From: a virus
Direction: 5' to 3' (one strand)
Virus genome (UHGV): UHGV-1337774
Length of the DNA: 12,236 nucleotides
Shown here: piece after piece, positions 1 through 12,236 of the stretch
Numbering within the stretch: position 1 is the first letter of the stretch
Layout: the number at the start of each line of letters is the position of its first letter
The notes under the pieces: generated by a model
Database searches by the model: none
What the model saw: only the letters and a program-made list of their open reading frames with translations
What the model was told of the DNA's origin: nothing
Position numbers and translations under genes: made by a program

Positions 1-2
1 AT

Positions 3-875
3 ATCTTCCCTCATATCGGTTCGTCCGACATTCGCCAGCTCAAAACCAGCCACCTATTAGCCCCGATTAAAAAAGTTGATGCCAGTGGTAAACACGACGT
101 CGCTCAGCGCCTACAACAGCGCGTCACGGCCATTATGCGGTATGCGGTACAGAACGATTACATCGACTCAAATCCAGCAAGTGACATGGCCGGTGCGTTA
201 TCGACAACCAAAGCACGACACTATCCAGCTTTACCCTCTAACCGTTTCCCTGAGTTTCTTGCACGTCTTGCTGCATATCGTGGCCGTTTAATGACACGGA
301 TTGCAGTCGAGCTTTCCTTACTAACTTTTGTGCGTTCCAGTGAGTTGCGTTTCGCTCGCTGGGATGAATTCGACTTCGATAAATCTCTTTGGCGTATACC
401 GGCAAAACGAGAAGAAATTAAAGGTGTCCGTTACTCGTACCGTGGGATGAAGATGAAAGAGGTGCATATCGTTCCGCTTAGTCGGCAGGCGATGATTTTG
501 TTAGAGCAGCTTAAGCAGATTAGTGGTGATAAAGAGCTACTGTTTCCGGGAGATCATGACGCAACTAAAGTTATGAGTGAAAACACGGTTAACAGTGCTT
601 TGCGCACAATGGGGTATGACACAAAAACCGAAGTTTGCGGGCATGGATTCAGAACTATGGCGCGCGGTGCTTTGGGCGAATCAGGGTTGTGGAGTGATGA
701 CGCGATAGAACGTCAGCTAAGCCACTCTGAGCGTAATAGCGTTAGGGCTGCTTATATTCATACTTCAGAGCATTTGGATGAGCGTCGTTTAATGGTTCAG
801 TGGTGGGCCGATTATCTTGATGCTAACACTCAGGAATATATAACCCCCTACGACTTTGCAAAAAAAACTATCTAG
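3..875 (+). CDS. int: Tyrosine recombinase/integrase, P4 family, C-terminal ~291 aa (5' end lies outside the window)
   Basis: The frame is open from position 3 with no upstream stop, so the 135 start in the ORF track is internal. Translation (IFPHIGSSDIRQLKTSHLLAPIKKV ... HGFRTMARGALGESGLWSDDAIERQLSH ... RAAYIH) resembles the catalytic C-terminal half of P4-type integrases. Stop TAG at 873-875. Confidence 0.85.
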   Translation: MFPHIGSSDIRQLKTSHLLAPIKKVDASGKHDVAQRLQQRVTAIMRYAVQNDYIDSNPASDMAGALSTTKARHYPALPSNRFPEFLARLAAYRGRLMTRIAVELSLLTFVRSSELRFARWDEFDFDKSLWRIPAKREEIKGVRYSYRGMKMKEVHIVPLSRQAMILLEQLKQISGDKELLFPGDHDATKVMSENTVNSALRTMGYDTKTEVCGHGFRTMARGALGESGLWSDDAIERQLSHSERNSVRAAYIHTSEHLDERRLMVQWWADYLDANTQEYITPYDFAKKTI

Positions 876-891
876 CTTTAAAAATTTTAAA

Positions 892-910
892 GTAGGGTCA
901 AAGACCCTAC
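892..910. terminator. Candidate bidirectional hairpin terminator between convergent int and HerA-like genes
   Basis: Inverted repeat GTAGGGTC-aaa-GACCCTAC (892-910) inside the 38-nt gap between the int stop (875) and the HerA stop (914). A/T-rich runs flank it on both sides (ctttaaaaattttaaa upstream, taattatttttt downstream). Confidence 0.45.
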
Positions 911-913
911 TAA

Positions 914-2635
914 TTATTTTTTCCATATATTGCAATAGCCTGGAGAATCAGATTCTGGTGGATATATTGGCTTATCTATCTGGATGGTCATAGGAATAGG
1001 GAAGTCAACCCCTACAAGAGCAACTTCACCTTGTTTGAGACTTGGTAGAAAAGATGCTGCAGATTTATCAATTTCACTGCATGCACGCTCAACGACTTCT
1101 CGATCTCGGTCGTTTGTTAAGCGATGAACCAATAAGGTTCCAATTTGACTAAGCACACCTTCAGTGATATCTCTGGGTCTTTGAGTTGTTAAGCATATAT
1201 TAAGGCCATATTTCCTGCCTTCTTTTGCAATCATCTCAAAAGCGTCAAGTTTAATTGCATGATCTTCAGAACCAACCCGTTTGCCAAGGAAGTTATGGGC
1301 TTCATCAACAATAACTAACAGCGGTCTTGTTCTGAATTTTTCAAGCCTAGCTAAAGTTAAAAGTTTTCTGCCGATTACATTGGCTAAAATTTCTCTAGCA
1401 TAAAACTCATAGCTAACATCACTTAGGCATAACCTTAGGACTCGTTTATCAGATTGTAAAAAAGTTTCTAATATTTCACCTAGTGTGGATATATCCTCGT
1501 TACTATTAAAAACAGACCTTAACGAGTTGGCATACGTTACTGCTTGAATTCTGGTTAACAAAGATGAGCAATAGCTTAAGTCTTGAGTTGCAGCGTTTCC
1601 CCAAGTATTATCTCCATTATCGTAACAACATTCTTGTACAATCTGTTTTATAAGTTTTGTTATATCAAATGGTTGTGATGGATTATCAACAAGTTTAGAG
1701 TTGTCTCCAGTATTCATTGCGCGTCGATAATCTGTTTTAGGTTGATTGATTTTTTTTAAAATACCATCGGTTGCTATCCTAGGTTCTAAAGCTACTAATC
1801 TAAGGCTTTTTATCGCTTCTTTTAGCTTAGGACCCTGTACTTTTCCAGAAGGATCGAACATGGCAATAAAGTCTGACTCAACAAAGTCGGTAGGTGGAAT
1901 TCTAAATTCTAAAGAATTTATGTTTTTATTTATTGGGGCACCTAAATGGTAATGTAAACAATAATCAGATTTAAACGATCTATACTCACTGGTTGCATCA
2001 ATTATTATAGTTTTAGAGTTTTCGTAATTCGAACACTCTTCAATTAACTTGGAAGTTGTCCAACTTTTTCCACCGCCTGTAGCTCCTAAGATAGCACAAT
2101 GACGACCGAAGAGTTTATCAGGTTCAACAGTTACTATACTTGTTGCCCCTCCAGATATAATGCCTAATACAATACCTATTCTTTCTTCCTCGTTATCTTT
2201 AATTCCTTTATTAATTAATTCTGGTATTAAAGAAATAAAATCTAAGGGAGCAGAATAAACTCGATCTCCTAATCGAGGATATGATTTGATTCCTGAATCA
2301 ATTCTAAAATTTGAAGGATCAATAGTTCCAAGAAGTTGTATAATGCCGATAGCATCAACTTTGAAGTTTCCTTGAGACCCGACAGATATTTCACCTCTAT
2401 CTCGCTCTGGTAATTTAACCTCTATTAAACGGCCAAGAACAATAGATTGTTGTCCTTCTATTAATAATATTTCACCAACTTCTCCTTTTCCATATCTACA
2501 ACCTTCTATATATGTTCCGCTGAGTTCCCCTGCATAGATTAAATTTGCTCTAACTGTTTGAGCAAAAATTGATGAGACTACTCCAACCTTAAGGTCGCCC
2601 CTCAAAATACCAAGCTGTAGTGTTGTATTAATCAT
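914..2635 (-). CDS. herA: HerA-like (DUF87/FtsK-HerA superfamily) P-loop ATPase, partner of a SIR2-like protein
   Basis: 573 aa ORF. Walker A GATGGGKS (in ILGATGGGKSWTTSKL) and Walker B-like LLVIVDEAH. Its ATG overlaps the upstream gene's TGA (ATGA at 2632-2635), indicating an operon. Confidence 0.75.
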   Translation of the reverse strand: MINTTLQLGILRGDLKVGVVSSIFAQTVRANLIYAGELSGTYIEGCRYGKGEVGEILLIEGQQSIVLGRLIEVKLPERDRGEISVGSQGNFKVDAIGIIQLLGTIDPSNFRIDSGIKSYPRLGDRVYSAPLDFISLIPELINKGIKDNEEERIGIVLGIISGGATSIVTVEPDKLFGRHCAILGATGGGKSWTTSKLIEECSNYENSKTIIIDATSEYRSFKSDYCLHYHLGAPINKNINSLEFRIPPTDFVESDFIAMFDPSGKVQGPKLKEAIKSLRLVALEPRIATDGILKKINQPKTDYRRAMNTGDNSKLVDNPSQPFDITKLIKQIVQECCYDNGDNTWGNAATQDLSYCSSLLTRIQAVTYANSLRSVFNSNEDISTLGEILETFLQSDKRVLRLCLSDVSYEFYAREILANVIGRKLLTLARLEKFRTRPLLVIVDEAHNFLGKRVGSEDHAIKLDAFEMIAKEGRKYGLNICLTTQRPRDITEGVLSQIGTLLVHRLTNDRDREVVERACSEIDKSAASFLPSLKQGEVALVGVDFPIPMTIQIDKPIYPPESDSPGYCNIWKK

Positions 2636-3930
2636 AATTGATTGTTAACTCCTACTTGTTTTATTACCTTAGCCAACTGTTCTGCTGGGGTTAATGCTTT
2701 AAGATTGGGAACTAATTTAACAAAATCACTGAAAGATGCATTTATGAAGTGAATGTCATAACCTGATAGTGAGAGTTGTTTTAGTAAATCCCAATATTTA
2801 CTAGAACCGTCCCCCCCTTTATTCCGAATATGAGTTGCACATTTGAAATCTACTATAATCAACCTCATGCTTGGATTGGATTTTATTGCTGAGTAAATTG
2901 GTTCAGAAAGATGGTCATCATTGAAACCAAATCCAGATATAACTAAACAGTTATTTCTTTTTCTCAAGAAATCTAACAATCTTGAAAGTAATTCTAAGTG
3001 AGGTTGAATAAAGGCTTGCTGATATTTACCTTTCGCTGGATATATTAGACATGCGTTTGTTGCTGTTGGTTGGCTGGATTCATATATTTGCCCATCCTTT
3101 CTTATCCAACTTACAGAACCGTGGAGTTTAAATAACTGGAATACGCCCTCTACAAACTCATGCTCGTTTTCATCTCTTTTAACAACATCGTAGTTAAAAT
3201 ATTTACCATCGAATCTGCGAACTCCTGTATATGAAAGACCATCAACTACCATCATTCCTAATTCAGAAGCAGCTGTTTCAAAGGCTAAATCATAGTTAGT
3301 TGTGAAAACTTTTAGTCTAGGATCTCTGACTCTCCTCCTCCCCATTTTTTGTAATAAATTGATGTAAGCTGAAAGATCACAGTTGCCATCATCAATAAAT
3401 GAGCGACATTTGTCTAAAATAATTGTTTTAACTTTATTTAAAAAATTCAACACTTCTTCATCATCATGAAATGCTAAATATGCTTCACAATTAGAAAGAA
3501 AGTGTTCTATGTTAGGATACTCTCGCTCTTTATATTTTACTTTATCACAAACAATTTGAGCATCAGGTTTTAATTGACCATCCTCGTTTATAGAAGATTC
3601 ACTCCACATTGCACACTTCCAGAGATCCCACATGCTTGGCCCTCCAACGTCCCCAAGCGAAGTACCACTCCCAGCGAAGAATGCAAGATTTGGGAATTGT
3701 AATGATTTTAGTAATAGTTCGTTTATATATGCCTGATTGTCTTTCAACTCCTTCTTTTCACCATCAGTAAGAGATTGTGCTGGAGAAATAGAATCTCCTG
3801 ACTCTTCTAAACTTTCATTCGTTATGTAGTCTCGCCAATAAATAAACGATTTACTATCTAATGCTTTCCAGTCGTTACTACCGGGTTTTAAAAATGAGAT
3901 GTATCCGTCCGGATTTGTAGTCATAATCAT
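2632..3930 (-). CDS. SIR2-like (SIR2_2 family) putative NAD+-consuming defence effector
   Basis: 432 aa ORF. Rossmann-like FFAGSGTS motif near the N-terminus, TTNYD motif and a downstream KLHGSVSW motif (candidate catalytic Asn/His as in defence SIR2 domains such as ThsA), plus GFGFNDDH near the C-terminus. Stop overlaps the HerA start. Confidence 0.7.
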   Translation of the reverse strand: MIMTTNPDGYISFLKPGSNDWKALDSKSFIYWRDYITNESLEESGDSISPAQSLTDGEKKELKDNQAYINELLLKSLQFPNLAFFAGSGTSLGDVGGPSMWDLWKCAMWSESSINEDGQLKPDAQIVCDKVKYKEREYPNIEHFLSNCEAYLAFHDDEEVLNFLNKVKTIILDKCRSFIDDGNCDLSAYINLLQKMGRRRVRDPRLKVFTTNYDLAFETAASELGMMVVDGLSYTGVRRFDGKYFNYDVVKRDENEHEFVEGVFQLFKLHGSVSWIRKDGQIYESSQPTATNACLIYPAKGKYQQAFIQPHLELLSRLLDFLRKRNNCLVISGFGFNDDHLSEPIYSAIKSNPSMRLIIVDFKCATHIRNKGGDGSSKYWDLLKQLSLSGYDIHFINASFSDFVKLVPNLKALTPAEQLAKVIKQVGVNNQL

Positions 3931-4412
3931 TATCCATTGATGTCATTAAGAGTTTGTTCCCAATAATTTACTACACCACGGCTGGAAGAAAAAGTAATCA
4001 CAATCACTATCTTTGACTACAGTGCGCACAATTATCTTCCCGCCACGCTTGCCCACCTTTAATACACGTGCATGTTTGATCTGAGGTCTTACGATATCTT
4101 GTACAGGTAGAGGTTATAAGAGTGAGAACCATGCTCACTAAGGATGACAAATCTATAAATATTACCCGTAGCGCCGCTCAGTTTACGTGTGCTGCATCGA
4201 TACACTGCAGTTCTTGAATCATTGCGGAGATTTCAGCAACTGCCAGCCAGTATCTCGTCAATCATTGTCACCGCCTGCGCGGCTGAGTTTGCTATTTTCT
4301 CCCTTAGCGCGAGCAGCCCCGCCCGCCTGCCCGCTTCGCTTAACAGACTGGTTTTCATGCACCCCGTAAATCGTCTCAGAAGCCACCACACAAGGGCTTT
4401 CGCGTCAAAAAT

Positions 4413-4443
4413 GGCGCATGAGACTCATGCGTTTTCATGCGCC
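4413..4443. repeat. Perfect palindrome with an extra direct half-site (GGCGCATGAG a CTCATGCG ttt TCATGCGCC)
   Basis: CGCATGAG (4415-4422) is the exact reverse complement of CTCATGCG (4424-4431). A second copy, TCATGCGCC (4435-4443), is the reverse complement of GGCGCATGA (4413-4421). Read directly from the sequence. Confidence 0.5.
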
Positions 4444-4488
4444 ATAGATATGCACTCATACGCTCTCAGGCCAGCCAGGGAAAAGGCG

Positions 4489-4513
4489 TAAAAAATCCCG
4501 GTACTGGACCGGG
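4489..4513 (-). terminator. Rho-independent terminator of the sid-psu-delta late operon
   Basis: On the minus strand, 23 nt after the delta stop (4537-4539), a hairpin TCCCGGT-ccagt-ACCGGGA is followed by ATTTTTTAC (plus-strand stems cccggt 4497-4502 and accggg 4508-4513, A-run 4490-4496). Confidence 0.6.
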
Positions 4514-4536
4514 ACTTCGTGGTCGTATTTTGCTAA

Positions 4537-4809
4537 TCAGACAGGAATTTGCTGACGGTTTGACAGCTTTGATGCGGAGCCATAGCGATTGAGAGTTTGC
4601 TGTTGTTTTTCCGGTATTTTTGCTTTGTCTGATTCCTGTTCATTGCACCGAGGCTTCATAATTATCGTATCCACGCTTTCCAGTGCGGTAAATGTGCAGG
4701 AACATTCCAGATTCTGGCACTGATACCATGAGCGTTTAACCGACGGAGCTTCATAGGCGCTGGTTCTGGCGTGAGCGACCGCGCCACATTCAGGACACTT
4801 CAGGGCCAT
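4537..4809 (-). CDS. delta: Ogr/Delta-family zinc-finger late transcription activator (single domain, ~90 aa)
   Basis: MALKCPECGAVAHARTSAYEAPSVKRSWYQCQNLECSCTF has the C-x2-C-x22-C-x4-C spacing and the AHARTS/YxQCxNxxCS motifs of P2 Ogr and P4 Delta. Start chosen at ATG 4807-4809, 1 nt after the upstream gene's stop at 4811-4813; the longer track ORF (to 4911) would overlap that gene. Confidence 0.8.
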   Translation of the reverse strand: MALKCPECGAVAHARTSAYEAPSVKRSWYQCQNLECSCTFTALESVDTIIMKPRCNEQESDKAKIPEKQQQTLNRYGSASKLSNRQQIPV

Positions 4810-4810
4810 A

Positions 4811-5365
4811 TCAGCACACTCCTTTTTCATTAAGTCGGTTAAGGCGGGCCAGGAAAACTTTATGTTGTGCCGGGGTGAAACTGGCTGAAGCATCAGCGCG
4901 CATTGATGCATCCACCGTTAATCCGGTTTCGTCGATAATGCTCTTATATGCTGCTGAAATTACCGGAGTACGGACTTCCGTTTGTCGGGCTACAGCGGTT
5001 CGTAATATTTTCATTGCCGCCTCAAGCCCGTATGGTGCACAAAGAAAAGGAGCCAGAGCGTCAGTGAGTGCATCACCATGCTCGCTCATGAAGTTTTCAG
5101 TTGCGCTTGTAACACAGCTTTCCAGCACAATCTGGTGAGCATAAAGACCATCCCGGGCGGCACAGTTAATCTGCCATTCGAGGAGTGCAAGACGCTCACG
5201 AAGATCCTCAAGTTGGCTGGCATATGCTGCGGGTTTTTCTTCAGTATCCAGCAAAGCAGCCAGACGAAGCTGGCTGGTACTTTGCACATTACGTAGTGTC
5301 AGCCAGCTTTTTATTGCCGCGCGGTAATCGTTGAGAGCTTCCTGAGTAATGGTTCCGGTATTCAT
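4811..5365 (-). CDS. psu: Psu-like (polarity suppression / capsid decoration) protein
   Basis: 184 aa; size and position fit P4 Psu. Recalled similarity in blocks such as HGDALTDALAP and the C-terminal FTPAQ motif. ATG at 5363-5365 overlaps the upstream TGA (ATGA coupling). The family call rests on memory and synteny. Confidence 0.55.
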   Translation of the reverse strand: MNTGTITQEALNDYRAAIKSWLTLRNVQSTSQLRLAALLDTEEKPAAYASQLEDLRERLALLEWQINCAARDGLYAHQIVLESCVTSATENFMSEHGDALTDALAPFLCAPYGLEAAMKILRTAVARQTEVRTPVISAAYKSIIDETGLTVDASMRADASASFTPAQHKVFLARLNRLNEKGVC

Positions 5366-6114
5366 TCCTTCTCGCCCCCTTTAGCCATGTCACGCTGTTT
5401 AAGCATCCGGGAACGTGCTGCAGGGCTGGGTGATTGTCTGGCATCCTGTATGGCTTTATCGTCCGCATAAATGCTGATCCCCGGCAGGGCAATATCATCC
5501 GTTGAAGATACGTTACAGAACAGTGCCGGAGTGGTGAGTTGCTCGCTGATAAATTGCTTCAGCACACTTTCGGGGTCGTTTACGGTATGAACTACACCGA
5601 TAACAGAAGATGCGCTTCGGCCCAGAGTCATTTTCAGCAGTCCAAGGATCTGAATAAGTTTCTGGCCGTGTTCCTTCATAAACTCATTCCAGAGCCACAC
5701 TGCATGAGTTTCAATCAGGTGATTATGTTCGCTGATGTAGCGGTTTGCAGCATCCGCAGTTTTCCATGGCAGGAATTCATTTTCTGCAGCCTGAGCAGCC
5801 AGCAAATCTTCGAACTCATCTAGTGTTTCGCGTCCGAGGGCGATTTCTGCCCGCAGTTTTTTCATTCGTGGCGTCATATTCCCCTGATTCTCACGAAACA
5901 GGTTTCGCCATTCATCATTAAGCGCCTGCGTCTCCGTTTTTGTATCTTCCTGACGTTTACGGATAGTTTCAGTCATTGCAGCAGCTTCGGTTTGTTTTCG
6001 CCGTTCTTCCTGCCAGACAGCTTTTGCTGCCTTAACTTTTTCCACCGCTTCGCGAATTTTCGGCGGGAGGGTGGGGGTAATGTTTGCATCAGAGATCTGG
6101 TTAACAGTTGTCAT
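5362..6114 (-). CDS. sid: Sid-like (external scaffold / capsid size determination) protein, first gene of the late operon
   Basis: 250 aa from ATG 6112-6114, which has a GGAG Shine-Dalgarno 5 nt upstream; the track's 6147 start is a TTG with no RBS. Helix-rich, charged N-terminus; size and position match P4 sid. Product call is from synteny only. Confidence 0.45.
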   Translation of the reverse strand: MTTVNQISDANITPTLPPKIREAVEKVKAAKAVWQEERRKQTEAAAMTETIRKRQEDTKTETQALNDEWRNLFRENQGNMTPRMKKLRAEIALGRETLDEFEDLLAAQAAENEFLPWKTADAANRYISEHNHLIETHAVWLWNEFMKEHGQKLIQILGLLKMTLGRSASSVIGVVHTVNDPESVLKQFISEQLTTPALFCNVSSTDDIALPGISIYADDKAIQDARQSPSPAARSRMLKQRDMAKGGEKE

Positions 6115-6140
6115 GGCTGCTCCGGTAGTGTTTTGTTGTT

Positions 6141-6207
6141 GTGTCAATTGTGCCGGGGTCCATACAAGCGCACTACCGAGGAGGATTGTGTCAGTGACTG
6201 AACAATG
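6141..6207 (-). promoter_or_regulatory. Candidate Delta/Ogr-activated late promoter (Psid-like) with a TGT-N12-ACA dyad
   Basis: TGT (6187-6189) - 12 nt - ACA (6202-6204) inside the near-palindrome TTGTgtcagtgactgaACAA, centred about 85 nt upstream of the sid ATG. P2/P4 late promoters carry this dyad at about -55. The -10 element could not be pinned down. Confidence 0.4.
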
Positions 6208-6270
6208 ACCTTGGTCTGGCTAGCCAGAGAAAGGTGTCATGTCTGATCTACACGCTTCCTTTAATACATA

Positions 6271-6480
6271 CTATTCACTACTGTTCACTTCAATAAAAAT
6301 ATAGTAAATACATGTGGTTAAGTGGTGTAGTGTTTTAATTAAAGTGATCATCTACTGTTCATGACTGTTCACAGAGATAAAATTAAACATATATTTCTTT
6401 TTCATATAAGTCGCGATATTTATTTCAGTTTATTACTGGATCTTTTCTCCTCACCAATATTCACCAGTATTCAATACATA
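6271..6480. repeat. Iteron-like direct repeats with a TTCAC core at 10-bp spacing (candidate alpha-binding ori-like region)
   Basis: Three clusters: ctaTTCACTactgTTCACTtca (6271-6292), tACTGTTCAtgACTGTTCAcag (6353-6374), and TCACCAATAT TCACCAGTAT TCAATACATA (6451-6480). P4 alpha protein is reported to bind TGTTCACC-type iterons in ori and crr. Confidence 0.4.
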
Positions 6481-7019
6481 TTCTATGTAAAGAATAAAAG
6501 ATGTCTTATATCTGTTTAATAATTGAACATTCAACCTCCCTGCACTCAGTTGCATTTCAGGAAAATATTCATAAAAATGAATTTGTCTGATGTTCATTAA
6601 ACACATTCGGATACATGCGGAAGTAAGATGGTAATTTAATTTCTTTAATCATCAGATTTATTGATACATATGGTGAGCTGTTTATTTTTGGCCGTTTTTG
6701 GCTCTTTTATTAATCAGGTGTTGTCTTAGTGCTTATGATGTAAAGCCCTGAATGATATGGGCTGGTTCAGATTTGAGCTGTGATCCTGCCTAGTGTAATA
6801 GACTTTTTTATTATTGATGCTCCTTATTATATTCCATAAAGGAATTGTTTGTTTTTGTTCGTTTCATACGGTTTTTAGCTGTTTTATTTTTTGAGAAATC
6901 AACATTTCACACAAAATAAATAAAGCATGCGCGAGCCGCTTATATAAACATAATAAGGAGCTACCTGAATCCGCATGGAATTGCCCGGACTGTTGTAAAC
7001 ATATTAGAGAGGTAGCCAG

Positions 7020-7280
7020 ATGAATAGTATTTCCGTTTCCACCCCGGCACCAGCTGCTCCGGTGCTCCCGGTTCCGGCTCAGCAGGAGCGCTTCATACGA
7101 TTACCTGAAGTGATGCACCTTTGCGGGCTATCCCGTTCAACCATCTACGACCTTATCAGCCGCGATGCCTTCCCGCAGCAGATATCCCTGGGTGGAAAAA
7201 ATGTGGCTTGGGTACAGTCGGAGGTCAGTGCATGGATGGCGGCGCGAATTGCTGCCCGCGAGCAAGGAGGCCATGCGTGA
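7020..7280 (+). CDS. alpA: AlpA/Vis-family helix-turn-helix regulator/excisionase
   Basis: 86 aa; [50 protein letters not shown] matches the AlpA family signature. AGAGAGG Shine-Dalgarno 7 nt before ATG 7020. Divergent from the sid operon, as for P4 vis. Confidence 0.85.
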
Positions 7281-7373
7281 AACTTGCTTTGCAGTCTCAT
7301 CTCCTTTTTTCTGGCTTGCGTCCTGATATCTTTTCCAGGTATAGTTTTCCCGCTGCCGCAAAATCGGCTGCCG

Positions 7374-7623
7374 GGCGTAGGAACCCGAGTTACTTATTGG
7401 CGACACCAGACGCGCCGTGCGTCTTTTTTTACGTCGTTGCTCAGGCACACCCATTTTTCGGGCTGCGGTGCTTATACCTTAGCCCCTTTCAGATAATGGT
7501 GGTCCGGGCGGGGCAGCCTTCGGGCTGGCCGGTTTCCAATAAGGCCGGTATTCCTACCCCCGTTCGGGTCACCACCCATGAGCGTAGGAACTCCGGTGGT
7601 GGCATTTACCGCTACTTATTGGA
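7374..7623 (+). promoter_or_regulatory. Candidate P4-type RNA immunity / attenuation region (CI-RNA-like): direct repeats flanking a partly complementary segment
   Basis: Direct repeats GCGTAGGAAC...TACTTATTGG at 7374-7399 and 7583-7623. Between them, 7536-7569 carries CCAATAAG and TTCCTAC, complementary to the TTATTGG and GTAGGAA blocks. Also a UUCG-type hairpin CAGCC-TTCG-GGCTG (7514-7526) and CACCACC/GGTGGTG pairing (7571-7577 with 7596-7602). Complementarity is patchy, not collinear. Confidence 0.3.
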
Positions 7624-7633
7624 GGTTGCCCTT

Positions 7634-7825
7634 ATGGCTACGATCCTCGCCCCGTCACATCCTCAATTTATATTTGTTTTTGCCGCCGTTCGTCGTGCAG
7701 AACGTAAACCACGTATCAGTATGCTGCGTATCATCGCCAGCAATGAGCATCATGCACGTCTTTCACTGGTCCATGAGTATGTGCTTTGTCTTGCTGCTCG
7801 CCTGCCTGTCCGGGAGGTGATCTAA
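7634..7825 (+). CDS. Hypothetical small protein (63 aa), first of three coupled genes upstream of alpha
   Basis: ATG 7634 with a GGAGG Shine-Dalgarno 8 nt upstream. Stop TAA 7823-7825 overlaps the next ATG (TAATG). It is the in-frame 3' part of the long 7121-7825 track ORF, which I do not believe as a whole. Confidence 0.4.
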
Positions 7826-8049
7826 TGAATCACGCCGCAATCTCTTATGACGATATTCTCCGCCTGAAGCATCTTCGTAACGTGGGAGAGTTTGTCACTG
7901 GAATGGCTGTTCTTCAGGATTGCTACGAAAAACCTGCCAGTGCTCAATGTGAACAACTGGTTTCCCTGATTTATCTGATGACAGAGCAGCTTGATGGCGT
8001 GGTACAGCGTTGCCAGGATGACCTCATGAACATGGAGGTGGTGCAATGA
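7825..8049 (+). CDS. Hypothetical small protein (74 aa); position equivalent to P4 eta/epsilon
   Basis: ATG 7825 preceded by GGGAGG (7812-7817). Its stop overlaps the next start (ATGA at 8046-8049). Start is internal to the 7786 track ORF. Confidence 0.5.
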
Positions 8050-8369
8050 AATCACGCACTCTTTCCCTTTCACTTCGGGTAGCGTTGTATCGCCGCGCGG
8101 TAGCCTGCGCCTGGTTGAGTGCCTGCTATCAGCAAAACCGCCATCTGCAGCTCACTCTGGATGAAATTGAAACCGCTATTGCCCGTGAGCTTGAAGGATT
8201 TTATCTGCGACAGCACGGGCAAACAAAAGGCATGGAAATCGCCTGCGCCCTGCTTTCAGACCTGATGGAATACGGCCCTCTAATGTCCTGTCCCGCACTC
8301 TCCCAGCTCGGAATAGCCGTAATGGATGAGTTATGCGTCCGTCACATCAAAAAGCCGGTTTTACACTGA
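8046..8369 (+). CDS. Hypothetical protein (107 aa) immediately upstream of alpha
   Basis: ATG 8046 overlaps the previous stop. Ends TGA 8367-8369, 14 nt before the alpha start. No recognisable motif. Confidence 0.55.
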
Positions 8370-8383
8370 GGGAGAACTGCGTC

Positions 8384-10717
8384 ATGTCAGGAATGAAAGT
8401 CAGTCAGGCCGTGAAGGCTGCCCGCGGTCACTGGGCTCAGATTCTGCCAGCGCTGGGCGTGAATATATTGAAAAATCGCCATCAGCCTTGCCCGGTCTGT
8501 GGCGGTAAAGATCGTTTTCGCTTCGACGATCAGGAAGGACGCGGAACATGGTTCTGCAATCAGTGCGGAGCCGGGGATGGTTTAGCGCTTGTCACCAGGG
8601 CACTGAATGTGGATATCAGTGAAGCAGCTGACAGGATACATGGACTGACACATGATCTGTCTATAGTTAATTCCGAGGTCAGGACGTTAACCGCCGATAC
8701 CGATAGCGGGAAAGATGCAGCGGCAGCACTTGCCGCGCGACTGCTGCAAGCCTCGCGTGAATCTGCCGGAAACACTTATCTTACACATAAAGGTTTCCCG
8801 GAGCATATTTGCCATGAGCTGACTTCAGCTCATAAGGCCGGTGGTGTGATGTTCCGCCCCGGTGATTTGATCGTCCCACTCTATAACGCTGACGGGGAGC
8901 TGGTGAATATTCAGCTTATCAGTGGCAATGGTAGCAAGTGTTTTCTTAAAGGAGGTCAGGTTAAGGAGGCCTATCATCTGATAGAAGGGGGCGGGAGTTC
9001 TGTAAGAAGGATTTGGATTGCGGAAGGTTACGCCACGGCGCTTACCATTCATTATTTGACAGGAGAAGCCGTCATGGTGGCATTTTCGTCGGTCAACTTT
9101 CTTTCTCTGAGCAGCGTTGCCCATAATAAGTATCCTGGATATCAGTTAATTATTGCAGCGGACCGCGATCTGAATGGTTCAGGCCAGAACAGGGCTGAAA
9201 CTGCTGCAAAAGCGAGTCAGTGTGACATTGTGCTGCCACCGGTTTTTGGTGACTGGAATGATGCGCTTACCCAATACGGAGAGGAATCCACCCGGAAGGC
9301 AATTCTTGAGGCTTTGAAGCCACATAACGCCAGTCCTTTCGACACAATGAGTGAAGCAGAATTCACAGCGATGAGTGTCAGCGAAAAAGCTCAGAGGGTT
9401 CGGGAGCATTACAGGGATGCACTGGCGGTTGATCCGAACGGGCAGCTTTTATCCCGCTACGAGTCTGGAGCGTGGAAAGTTATTTCTCAGTCAGATTTTG
9501 CCCGAGATGTCGCAGCCCTTTTCCAGCGCCTCGGGGCACCGTTTTCCTCAGGAAAAATTGCCTCACTGGTGGAAACATTAAAGTTAATTGTTCCGCAGCA
9601 GCAAAATCCGTCACGTCATCTGATTGGTTTTCGTAATGGCGTTCTCGATACGCGAACAGGGCTTTTTAGTCCGCACTGTAAAGAGAACTGGCTGCGTACC
9701 CTGTGTGAAGTCGATTTCACGCCACCGGTAAAGGGGGAAACGCTTGAAACTCATGCCCCGGCATTCTGGCGTTGGCTGGACCGGGCCGCCGGACACAAGC
9801 CAGCAAAACGCGACATTATTCTTGCAGCGTTATTTATGGTGCTGGCGAACCGTTATGACTGGCAGCTCTTTCTGGAAGTGACTGGCCCTGGTGGAAGTGG
9901 CAAAAGTATTCTGGCTGAAATTGCGACCATGCTTGCTGGAGAGGATAACGCCACCTCTGCGACCATTGAAACGCTGGAGTCCCCGCGAGAACGTGCGGCT
10001 CTGATAGGTTTTTCTCTTATTCGCCTGCCTGATCAGGAGAAGTGGAGCGGCGACGGCGCCGGGCTTAAGGCTATAACTGGTGGCGATGCAGTATCTGTGG
10101 ACCCCAAATATCAGAATGCTTATTCAACACATATTCCGGCGGTTATCTTGGCCGTAAATAATAATCCTATGCGCTTCACTGATCGCAGTGGTGGTGTGTC
10201 CCGCAGGAGAGTTATTCTGCATTTTCCTGAGCAGATAGCACCGGAAGAACGCGATCCGCAGTTGAAAGATAAAATTGCACGAGAACTGGCTGTGATTGTT
10301 CGTCAGCTCATGCAGCGTTTCAGCGATCCGATGAGCGCCAGAACATTGCTTCAGTCGCAGCAGAATTCTGATGAGGCTCTCACCATCAAGCGTGATGCTG
10401 ATCCAGCATTTGATTTTTGTGGCTACCTTGAGGCATTACCTGACACCAACGGCATGTTTATGGGGAACGCCAATATTGTCCCGCGCCAGCCACGTACGTA
10501 CCTTTACCATGCCTATCTCGTATACATGGAGGCTAATGGCTTTAAAAATACCCTTAGCCTGACAATGTTTGGCAAAGGGCTACCAGTTATGCTGAAGGAA
10601 TACGGGCTAAATTATGAGAAGCGGCGAACTAATCAGGGAATGCAGACTAACCTCACTTTAAAAGAGGAAAGTAATGCAGACTGGCTTCCCAAGTGTGATG
10701 AGCCAACAATCAAATAA
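8384..10717 (+). CDS. alpha: P4 alpha-type bifunctional primase-helicase (zinc-binding primase + TOPRIM + SF3/D5-like helicase)
   Basis: Zinc-binding CPVCGGKDRFRFDDQEGRGTWFCNQCG, TOPRIM-like IWIAEGYATALT, Walker A GPGGSGKS, about 777 aa. Start placed at ATG 8384 with a GAGGGAGAA Shine-Dalgarno; the track's 8333 start would overlap the upstream gene. Stop TAA 10715-10717. Confidence 0.9.
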   Translation: MSGMKVSQAVKAARGHWAQILPALGVNILKNRHQPCPVCGGKDRFRFDDQEGRGTWFCNQCGAGDGLALVTRALNVDISEAADRIHGLTHDLSIVNSEVRTLTADTDSGKDAAAALAARLLQASRESAGNTYLTHKGFPEHICHELTSAHKAGGVMFRPGDLIVPLYNADGELVNIQLISGNGSKCFLKGGQVKEAYHLIEGGGSSVRRIWIAEGYATALTIHYLTGEAVMVAFSSVNFLSLSSVAHNKYPGYQLIIAADRDLNGSGQNRAETAAKASQCDIVLPPVFGDWNDALTQYGEESTRKAILEALKPHNASPFDTMSEAEFTAMSVSEKAQRVREHYRDALAVDPNGQLLSRYESGAWKVISQSDFARDVAALFQRLGAPFSSGKIASLVETLKLIVPQQQNPSRHLIGFRNGVLDTRTGLFSPHCKENWLRTLCEVDFTPPVKGETLETHAPAFWRWLDRAAGHKPAKRDIILAALFMVLANRYDWQLFLEVTGPGGSGKSILAEIATMLAGEDNATSATIETLESPRERAALIGFSLIRLPDQEKWSGDGAGLKAITGGDAVSVDPKYQNAYSTHIPAVILAVNNNPMRFTDRSGGVSRRRVILHFPEQIAPEERDPQLKDKIARELAVIVRQLMQRFSDPMSARTLLQSQQNSDEALTIKRDADPAFDFCGYLEALPDTNGMFMGNANIVPRQPRTYLYHAYLVYMEANGFKNTLSLTMFGKGLPVMLKEYGLNYEKRRTNQGMQTNLTLKEESNADWLPKCDEPTIK

Positions 10718-10725
10718 TTACAACT

Positions 10726-10752
10726 AACCCGGCTGATGCCGGGTTTCTTATT
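10726..10752 (+). terminator. Rho-independent terminator after alpha
   Basis: AACCCGGC-tgat-GCCGGGTT hairpin (10726-10745) followed by TCTTATT, starting 9 nt after the alpha stop. Confidence 0.55.
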
Positions 10753-10777
10753 GGAAACGTACGAATGTAGAGATAGC

Positions 10778-10990
10778 AGTTCACTCTTCACCTAACTGTT
10801 AATACATAACCAATTGATATATAAATTAAAAGTTGCAGAGTGAATAGTGTGCATGGTTTTGCGAAAAAAAAGTATTTTTTGTTGAGTCAAGTCCCGGTTT
10901 GGATCCGTTTAACGGAACCTAACTGGATTGACTATTTCTTCGATAATTTTTGGATAAATAATTAACAAAAATCAAAATGTGAACAGCGAA
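10778..10990. repeat. Scattered TTCAC-type motifs in both orientations (candidate crr-like cis replication region)
   Basis: aGTTCACtcTTCACCtaactgtt (10778-10800), gagTGAAtag (10839-10848), and aaaatGTGAACAgcg (10975-10989, TGTTCAC on the minus strand). This lies about 4.5 kb from the iteron cluster at 6271-6480, the ori-crr spacing I recall for P4. Weaker than the upstream cluster. Confidence 0.25.
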
Positions 10991-11068
10991 TGGAGGGGGC
11001 ACAAAAGGGGGCATAATTGAATTAATTATTAATAAAATCCATTTTTTACAACAATTTAAATGAATATG

Positions 11069-11088
11069 CGAGTCCGGCCTTCGCACCA
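11069..11088 (+). other. att core: 20-nt copy of a tRNA-Leu (leuX-type) 3' end, candidate attR
   Basis: CGAGTCCGGCCTTCGCACCA matches the 3' end of E. coli leuX as I recall it (…GTTCGAGTCCGGCCTTCGGCACCA), apart from one missing G. The upstream sequence is AT-rich and shows no D or anticodon arm, so this is a fragment, not a tRNA gene. Confidence 0.55.
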
Positions 11089-11277
11089 TACAAAGCTTTT
11101 TGCAAGTCTACTAACGTCTACTTTAGTCCATAAAAACAGTAAGTTAGGCAGGTTTCTGGCTTTTCTTAGTCTGTACGCGTCTACTCAATTCCTTGAACAT
11201 ATACCAACTGATGATGGTATAACTGATAGTATTCTCGGTTCGATTGATTTTGGTACCAACACTGGAGGTATCAACTG

Positions 11278-11530
11278 ATGGCTTTCACCGATATCAAAGT
11301 TAGGACTACCAAGCCCTCCGACAAACCCTTCAAACTCACAGATGGGTAGGGTATGCACCTGCTGATCAATCCCAATGGTTCAAAATACTGGCGACTTCAA
11401 TACCGTTTCGAGGGGGGCAACAGAAAGTTTCAGCATTGGGTGTTTATCCATTGGTCTCTCTTGGTGAAGCCGCAGGAAGCTAGATGAAGCCAAAAAGTTG
11501 GTATTTGATGGTATCGACCCTTCTGAAAAG
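11278..11530 (+). pseudogene. Decayed P4-family integrase, N-terminal fragment with a premature stop and at least two frameshifts
   Basis: GGAGG Shine-Dalgarno then ATG 11278: MAFTDIKVRTTKPSDKPFKLTDG*GMHLLINPNGSKYWRLQYRFEGG (in-frame TAG at 11347-11349). Downstream, integrase-like ALGVYPLVSLGEA and RRKLDEAKKLVFDGIDPSEKKK appear in two other frames. It sits about 190 nt after the tRNA 3'-end repeat, as intB does after leuX in E. coli K-12. Confidence 0.6.
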
Positions 11531-12236
11531 AAAAAGTGTTAGGTAAGCGAAGCGAGTTGTGCCGGACGGGTTTAGCGACATCCAGGCGAAGCATTTTTGT
11601 AGTATTAAATTCAGCGATCAAATCTTTAGCTGCATTCCCAACTATTATTATGTTTCCACCTATCACGACAGGAGCTTTTTTATGTTGAGAACTGGCCTAA
11701 ACGCATAGAGAACGGCACCAGCAAAACTCTTTCCCCTGCGAATTTTTTGCATCCCTTTCAATGTTTATCACCGACAGATCGAGTTGCTGACAGAAGGGTA
11801 TCTCTCAGTACTTTTATTCTTTTTTGCGCCGTATAAATTTCGGTGAGGGTAAAGGAGCTGTTGTGTGATTTGGTATCGAGATGCTGAATAAGTTTATGTA
11901 GATTCTGAGCTTGCTTTTGTAAGCTCTTTCCAAACAGTTAGATTTATTTCAGAAATTTTGGGTGGGAGATACTTCAATGCTGACATACGTATCCAAACAG
12001 TACGGTTGAGATCTTTTCGTAAGCCATCAACGTAGGAGAATTCGGCATCTCATTTAATCTGATACTAATACAATGATTACGTGTCTGTTGGGAGGGTAAT
12101 TTAGCACGAGTGAAATTTTCATAGCTACAGCTTCTAAATGACTTGATGTTATTAAGACTATGATTTCTATCATTCATATGAACTGATCCTACCCACGTAA
12201 TATGGACACAGGCCTAAGCGAGGTTCTTGTTTTCAA

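Follow-up and report, generated by a model that had tools for sequence, protein, structure and literature searches.

The DNA from position 11069 to the end of UHGV virus genome UHGV-1337774 very probably marks where two generations of mobile elements meet at the leuX tRNA-Leu gene of E. coli: one that came first and decayed in place, and a P4-like satellite that arrived later. All positions refer to the window, by which we mean the whole 12,236-nt stretch that was analysed. A P4-like satellite prophage fills positions 1-11088, and its right boundary is fixed to the base at 11088. The 1.1 kb beyond this point is dead chromosomal baggage that lies outside the satellite and its cargo, and the boundary matters for the annotation of the element and for integrase counts. 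The features on either side of it are listed here.

1..875, plus strand: satellite P4-type integrase, C-terminal 290 codons (Pfam Phage_int_M and Phage_integrase)
914-3930, minus strand: SIR2 and HerA defence pair, cargo between int and the psu/delta genes
7352-7429, plus strand: isrK (Rfam, 72 bits)
7492-7579, plus strand: C4 antisense RNA (Rfam, 83 bits)
8384-10717: alpha primase, with a terminator at 10726-10745
10993..11016, plus strand: two adjacent 12-bp putative arm-type Int-binding repeats of the P arm (GAGGGGGCACAA, AAGGGGGCATAA), direct repeat
11069..11088, plus strand: attR core, a displaced copy of the leuX tRNA-Leu 3' end minus one G
11089..11277, plus strand: what was the int-proximal arm of the older island, with the region upstream of its int
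11278..11535, plus strand: integrase pseudogene remnant, codons 1-85 of 415, Arm DNA-binding domain only
11536..11538: internal deletion junction between two blastn blocks, int codon 85 fused to relaxase codon 74
11541..11761, minus strand: probable relaxase (MobA/VirD2-type) pseudogene, codons 1-74 of ~395, frameshifted
11764..12177, minus strand: decayed copy of the 137-aa gene found upstream of the relaxase in the intact island (blastx)
12184..12236, minus strand: terminal 53 nt of IS3, where the older island is truncated

The satellite and its right attachment site

Matches to the satellite occur in 20 complete E. coli genomes at 99.6-99.9% identity, and all of them end at 11087-11089, where the core ends. 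Its integrase gene is 99.9% identical in nucleotide sequence to that of satellites in which a 419-aa integrase lies directly 3' of an intact leuX, and 90% identical to that of P4. In strain 23AR1101, the 419-aa integrase of the satellite adjoins the intact tRNA gene and the far end of the element carries the same core with a single G. The cargo consists of a HerA-type ATPase (573 aa) and a SIR2 protein (432 aa), which match the PADLOC SIR2-HerA models with E values of 5e-166 and 7e-82, respectively. Sister satellites with an identical alpha protein carry other cargo at this spot, for example an OLD-type ATPase with a UvrD helicase. Homologues of psu, delta and sid are also present, and isrK together with the C4 antisense RNA is the P4-type immunity RNA region that a P4-like satellite would predict. 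The same backbone, again recognized by its identical alpha protein, precedes at least six other right flanks, several of which hold an intact or split second integrase. When positions 10700-12236 were scanned for promoters and terminators, only the alpha terminator exceeded shuffled sequences. Between this terminator and the repeats of the P arm, ACCTAACTG occurs twice, 127 nt apart (10790-10798 and 10917-10925). The corresponding position in P4 is occupied by the crr replication region with its 120-bp direct repeats, and the ACCTAACTG pair may be a diverged crr.

At the right end of the satellite, the original prediction had placed a 20-nt copy of a tRNA-Leu 3' end. The 20-mer CGAGTCCGGCCTTCGCACCA is indeed found at 11069-11088, and it occurs only once in the window even when up to three mismatches are allowed. 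A chance origin was rejected, as the expectation from 200 shuffles with three mismatches allowed is 0.00. The match is to leuX, with one amendment: the copy holds 20 of the last 21 nt of the tRNA (CGAGTCCGGCCTTCGGCACCA), and one G of a GG pair is absent. In ATCC 8739, the intact leuX tRNA-Leu ends in ...GGTTCGAGTCCGGCCTTCGGCACCA. ARAGORN finds no tRNA gene in the window, so positions 11069-11088 represent a fragment rather than a gene. Homology to strains without the satellite begins at 11069, inside the tRNA 3' end, and homology to the satellite itself stops at 11087-11089.

Integration of P4 at leuX through a 20-bp core reportedly goes back to Pierson and Kahn in 1987. It is annotated in the P4 record X51522, where a pair of repeats (GGGGGCACAA and GGGGGCATA, 4151-4174) labelled 'attP arm sequence repeat' matches the pair at 10993-11016 in the window; the spacing to the core is 53 nt in both. 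By this resemblance, the window repeats are putative Int-binding arm sites like those of P4. With such repeats, such a spacing and an integrase gene 90% identical to that of P4, positions 10993-11088 are the attR of the satellite. The two elements thus share the leuX target, the 20-bp core region and the P-arm repeats. They differ in that the core of the satellite is one G short (19 rather than 20 nt within GAGTCC...CACCA), in the SIR2-HerA cargo of the window, and in the rest of the P arm, which has no detectable similarity. A search of the phage collection, P4 among its records, with positions 10720-11100 found nothing even in distant mode, so the case for a P4-related attR is made by the core together with the arm repeats and the int gene.

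The other attachment site, attL, and the tRNA gene would lie upstream of window position 1, with the direct repeat confirmed only in close relatives. All 17 related loci with an element between leuX and a distal copy of the core have the integrase of that element after an intact leuX, which ends in the same core. If this reading of attL and attR is true, the leuX upstream of the satellite integrase is expected to end in GAGTCCGGCCTTCGGCACCA. The satellite can presumably still excise.

The remnant of an older, probably mobilizable island

Beyond the core, the original prediction had described the N-terminus of an integrase about 190 nt further on, in the same orientation and interrupted by an in-frame TAG and frameshifts. 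All of this was recovered. The ATG of the remnant (11278-11280) lies 189 nt 3' of the core on the same strand, and the frame it opens translates to MAFTDIKVRTTKPSDKPFKLTDG, then a stop, then GMHLLINPNGSKYWRLQYRF and onwards. Alignment to the intact homologue of strain MSI001 mapped the lesions to a nonsense mutation (CAG>TAG at 11347-11349), a gain of two nucleotides in a G run near 11411-11418 and a loss of one nucleotide in a C run at 11470-11471; beyond 11535, homology to the MSI001 int is lost. When repaired, the 85-aa translation matches Pfam Arm-DNA-bind_3 (PF13356) with 88.4 bits against a cut-off of 27, and frame by frame it corresponds to codons 1-85 of a 415-aa P4-family integrase, with 93% amino acid identity to its intact counterparts in MSI001 and Rb-50. 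The intact MSI001 integrase has all three P4-type domains (Arm-DNA-bind_3, Phage_int_M and Phage_integrase) and shares 57% identity with P4 Int along the entire protein. The remnant ends at codon 85 without the central and catalytic domains and without an open frame. It is a pseudogene fragment of a member of the P4 family of tyrosine integrases, not a functional member.

RefSeq annotates the same stretch of ATCC 8739 as 'Arm DNA-binding domain-containing protein; frameshifted; internal stop; missing C-terminus'. Positions 11090-11545 are present at 99% identity or more in 28 complete genomes. As the lesions are common to at least 28 independent complete assemblies, they are not sequencing errors in an otherwise intact integrase, a possibility against which the original prediction was to be judged. 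In the region between the core and the remnant, GTCTACT occurs three times (11106-11112, 11116-11122 and 11179-11185), the first two copies being 10 bp apart just past the core, and these repeats are unchanged in ATCC 8739 and in the intact island of MSI001. Comparable pairs with 10-bp spacing lie at the corresponding place beside other leuX integrases, namely AGACGTC and GGACGTC at one locus (L003) and AGACCTC and TGAGGTC in Rb-50 (L005). The GTCTACT repeats are probably arm-type sites of the old integrase.

The remnant is followed by further debris of the same island. In blastn, positions 11089-11535 correspond to 5380-5825 of the Rb-50 locus L005 and positions 11539-12184 to 16001-16644, and this separation of the two blocks in Rb-50 points to an internal deletion of about 10.2 kb (L005 5826-16000). 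Past the junction, blastx identifies a probable relaxase remnant with 64-72% amino acid identity to the Rb-50 relaxase in two frames. The intact Rb-50 relaxase matches Pfam Relaxase PF03432, and the 74-codon fragment has no Pfam match of its own. In ATCC 8739, RefSeq likewise annotates a relaxase pseudogene on the opposite strand, frameshifted and missing its C-terminus, and then an IS3 element. Positions 11764-12177 align by blastx with residues 1-137 of an Rb-50 hypothetical protein, split over two frames; the intact 137-aa protein has no Pfam match, and from its location its gene would occupy the position of a relaxase accessory gene.

The stump is closed by IS3. Positions 12184-12236 are 100% identical to IS3 ends in MSI001 and at one other locus (L011), and an IS3 transposase is annotated just past this point in both ATCC 8739 and CUVM53. 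What follows IS3 is fimG-fimH in ATCC 8739 (L001 5147-6842) and, almost directly, uxuA in CUVM53 (L002 15227-18154), so the island has lost its distal end and the chromosome some of its genes. The difference between the two strains suggests that IS3-associated deletions of differing extent took part or all of the fim cluster. The distal tRNA fragment of the older island is absent, with IS3 from 12184 and then chromosomal genes in ATCC 8739 and CUVM53. Without an integrase and without a distal att site, the stump cannot move. This stretch of about 1.1 kb has no function.

Intact or nearly intact relatives of the old island were found at leuX in Rb-50 (NZ_AP025682) and MSI001 (NZ_CP076645). Their layout comprises a 415-aa integrase, a DUF6387 protein, an HTH protein, a three-gene recombinase module and, on the minus strand, a relaxase with its upstream gene. 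In both strains, int, the relaxase and its upstream gene are arranged and oriented like the fragments in the window. From these relatives, the older element is predicted to have been an integrative mobilizable island with a P4-family integrase, a MobA/VirD2-type relaxase and cargo, and not a satellite. In nucleotide comparison, positions 11536-12183 are 85% identical to Rb-50 and have no match in the MSI001 island, so the content of the lost part is an extrapolation. By this extrapolation, the window differs from the relatives in the deletion of the DUF6387 and HTH genes and the recombinase module, as well as the further cargo seen in Rb-50.

The order of the two insertions

The sequence from 11089 to 12236 is 100% identical in CUVM53, ET82 and 21AR0133 and 99.9% identical in ATCC 8739. 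In 30 complete E. coli records, including ATCC 8739, an intact and unoccupied leuX is followed directly by the stump at 99.9-100% identity, so that in strains free of the satellite the tRNA gene adjoins exactly this remnant. The proposal that the remnant was the tRNA-integrase junction of an older island, displaced by the satellite, is thereby supported. In other strains, the stump lies behind three different elements, which are unrelated or only distant relatives: a different but related P4-like satellite in the finished chromosome of CUVM53, a prophage-like element with an integrase at its far end in ET82, and another satellite-like element in 21AR0133. Across strains, then, one fixed stump neighbours the landing site of at least four different elements.

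Identities, boundaries, lesions and the same stump at unoccupied leuX elsewhere were observed directly, and from them we infer the order of events. As the stump is immobile and yet adjoins an empty leuX in 30 records and follows three other elements elsewhere, it would have been there first and the satellite would have come later. An integrative mobilizable island would first have occupied leuX, and its integrase would have acquired the nonsense mutation and the two frameshifts in place. A deletion of about 10 kb would have joined codon 85 of the integrase to codon 74 of the relaxase. Insertion of IS3 and an adjacent deletion would then have removed the rest of the island together with its distal att site, leaving a fixed 1.1-kb stump directly after the tRNA. 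The integrase of the P4-like satellite with its SIR2-HerA cargo would later have recombined attP with the 3' end of the tRNA. This would have regenerated the tRNA gene beside the satellite int (attL, upstream of the window) and created attR (P arm and core, 10993-11088) about 11.5 kb downstream, abutting the stump. In different strains, different elements would have entered the tRNA in front of the stump independently.

The architecture of the window alone gives no order, and arrays of this kind can grow at more than one point: a second element may use either restored core of an array (TIGER, PMC7192596). The mobilizable island could accordingly have entered the attR core of a satellite already in place and decayed afterwards. 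This reverse order is very unlikely. It has to account for an immobile stump that is found, lesions included, at the empty leuX of 30 records as well as behind three other elements, and it would need decay behind the satellite followed by repeated precise excisions and re-occupations.

Two further explanations concern the integrity of the window itself. The window opens inside an integrase without its N-terminus, and an integrase N-terminus lies near the other end in the same orientation, which would fit a circular permutation of a single element with the sequence from 11278 as the missing start of the integrase at position 3. The original prediction had dismissed this possibility, rightly so, and we consider it next to impossible. 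Between the remnant and residues 1-83 of the Int encoded by the satellite itself, as taken from satellites of 99.9% identity, the identity is only 48%; the remnant breaks at codon 85 into an opposite-strand relaxase fragment and IS3 with no further integrase; and the DNA from 11089 onwards is chromosomal-context DNA beside leuX in satellite-free strains. By these three findings, a circular permutation is refuted. An assembly artefact, in which the shared 20-nt core led to the joining of two unrelated contigs, would explain why this satellite and this stump are paired in none of 5,426 complete E. coli genomes. The exact 53-nt junction also had no match among the GTDB species representatives, a weak test as there is one genome per species. 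However, a separate 599-bp metagenome contig (L019, ENA ERZ27229669 k119_83305) is 100% identical to 10866-11464 and spans the junction; it is the only other record of the exact junction and could share the sample of the window. In addition, the identical stump is preceded in the finished CUVM53 chromosome by a P4-like satellite related to this one, and the arrangement is what site-specific integration into a stump-bearing leuX allele predicts. An artefact is therefore extremely improbable, and the reading in which the satellite integrated in front of an older stump is the one adopted here.

The single-G core and other arrays at tRNA genes

The attR core without one G (GAGTCCGGCCTTCGCACCA, 11070-11088) is not peculiar to the window. 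It is also found at L002:14083, L003:17070 and L005:23450 and at loci L010-L012, L014, L016-L018, L020 and L021. Such cores lie behind at least three P arms, those of this satellite, the CUVM53 satellite and the Rb-50 mobilizable island, and precede at least seven different right flanks. The GG pair is found in all 17 attL tRNAs examined, in unoccupied sites with the same right flank and in the attP of P4; two copies of this satellite's attR (L013 and L022) keep it as well. The missing G thus travels with the element and not with the flank, for which the simplest explanation is a variant in attP to the left of strand exchange.

It is conceivable, though we regard it as rather doubtful, that the missing G is a heritable attP marker instead of a sign of decay, and that P4-family leuX integrases exchange strands within the last six or fewer nucleotides of the tRNA (GCACCA), 3' of the G run. 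If so, the 15 nt to the left of the exchange would only be a binding site and free to drift, and a defective attR core might steer arrivals to the tRNA-proximal site, which would place the newest element nearest the tRNA. The attP junction would be expected to read P arm, GAGTCCGGCCTTCG(single G)CACCA, TTAGTAC, and the restored attB would have GG and then TACAAAGC. Two patterns for the attP junction of the excised form (P arm, core with G or GG, P' arm) had no matches in IMG/VR, and a third pattern returned only attR copies in prophage form. A footnote to Islander gives the crossover subsite as the junction of the T and acceptor stems (PMC4383910); the missing-G marker would put the crossover further 3'. 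This placement of the crossover is a modest lead and not a finding.

Tandem arrays at tRNA genes are established, and the arrangement described here is therefore correct but ordinary and already known in kind. Islander defines islands by a regenerated tRNA gene and a displaced fragment and counts 125 tandems among 3919 islands (PMC4383910). According to TIGER, the core is restored at either end upon integration, and tandem arrays arise when a second element enters one of the two copies (PMC7192596). A survey of P4-like satellites mentions tandem elements and the pseudogenization of these, as well as extra integrases that cluster at hotspots (PMC8628076). The window shares with the Islander and TIGER arrays a tyrosine-integrase element in the 3' end of a tRNA gene, the regeneration of that gene and the displaced fragment left behind, as well as a later element that reuses the restored site with the earlier occupant distal to it. 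In contrast to them, the older member in the window is an 85-codon integrase pseudogene whose own distal tRNA fragment was removed by IS3. With neither its own tRNA fragment nor a working integrase in the older member, the arrangement falls short of a full tandem array as Islander defines it and is a degenerate one. It offers a clean example of how leuX layers mobile DNA and leaves current understanding unchanged.

The leuX-intB region of E. coli K-12 (the KpLE2 cryptic element), which the original prediction had named for comparison, likewise has a P4-family integrase directly 3' of leuX in the same orientation and a cryptic element fixed in the chromosome. It proved to be related to the remnant but not its orthologue (72% nucleotide identity over 218 nt), and intB carries no pseudogene flags in RefSeq whereas the copy in the window is an 85-codon stump. 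Among the relatives of the older island, the one in MSI001 lacks a distal copy of the core within the stretch read, and the one in Rb-50 spans about 18 kb between two core copies. The Rb-50 island (L005 5295-24451) has a single-G attR core of its own (23450), followed by another truncated integrase (23669-24451), which adds another layer to the serial integration at leuX.
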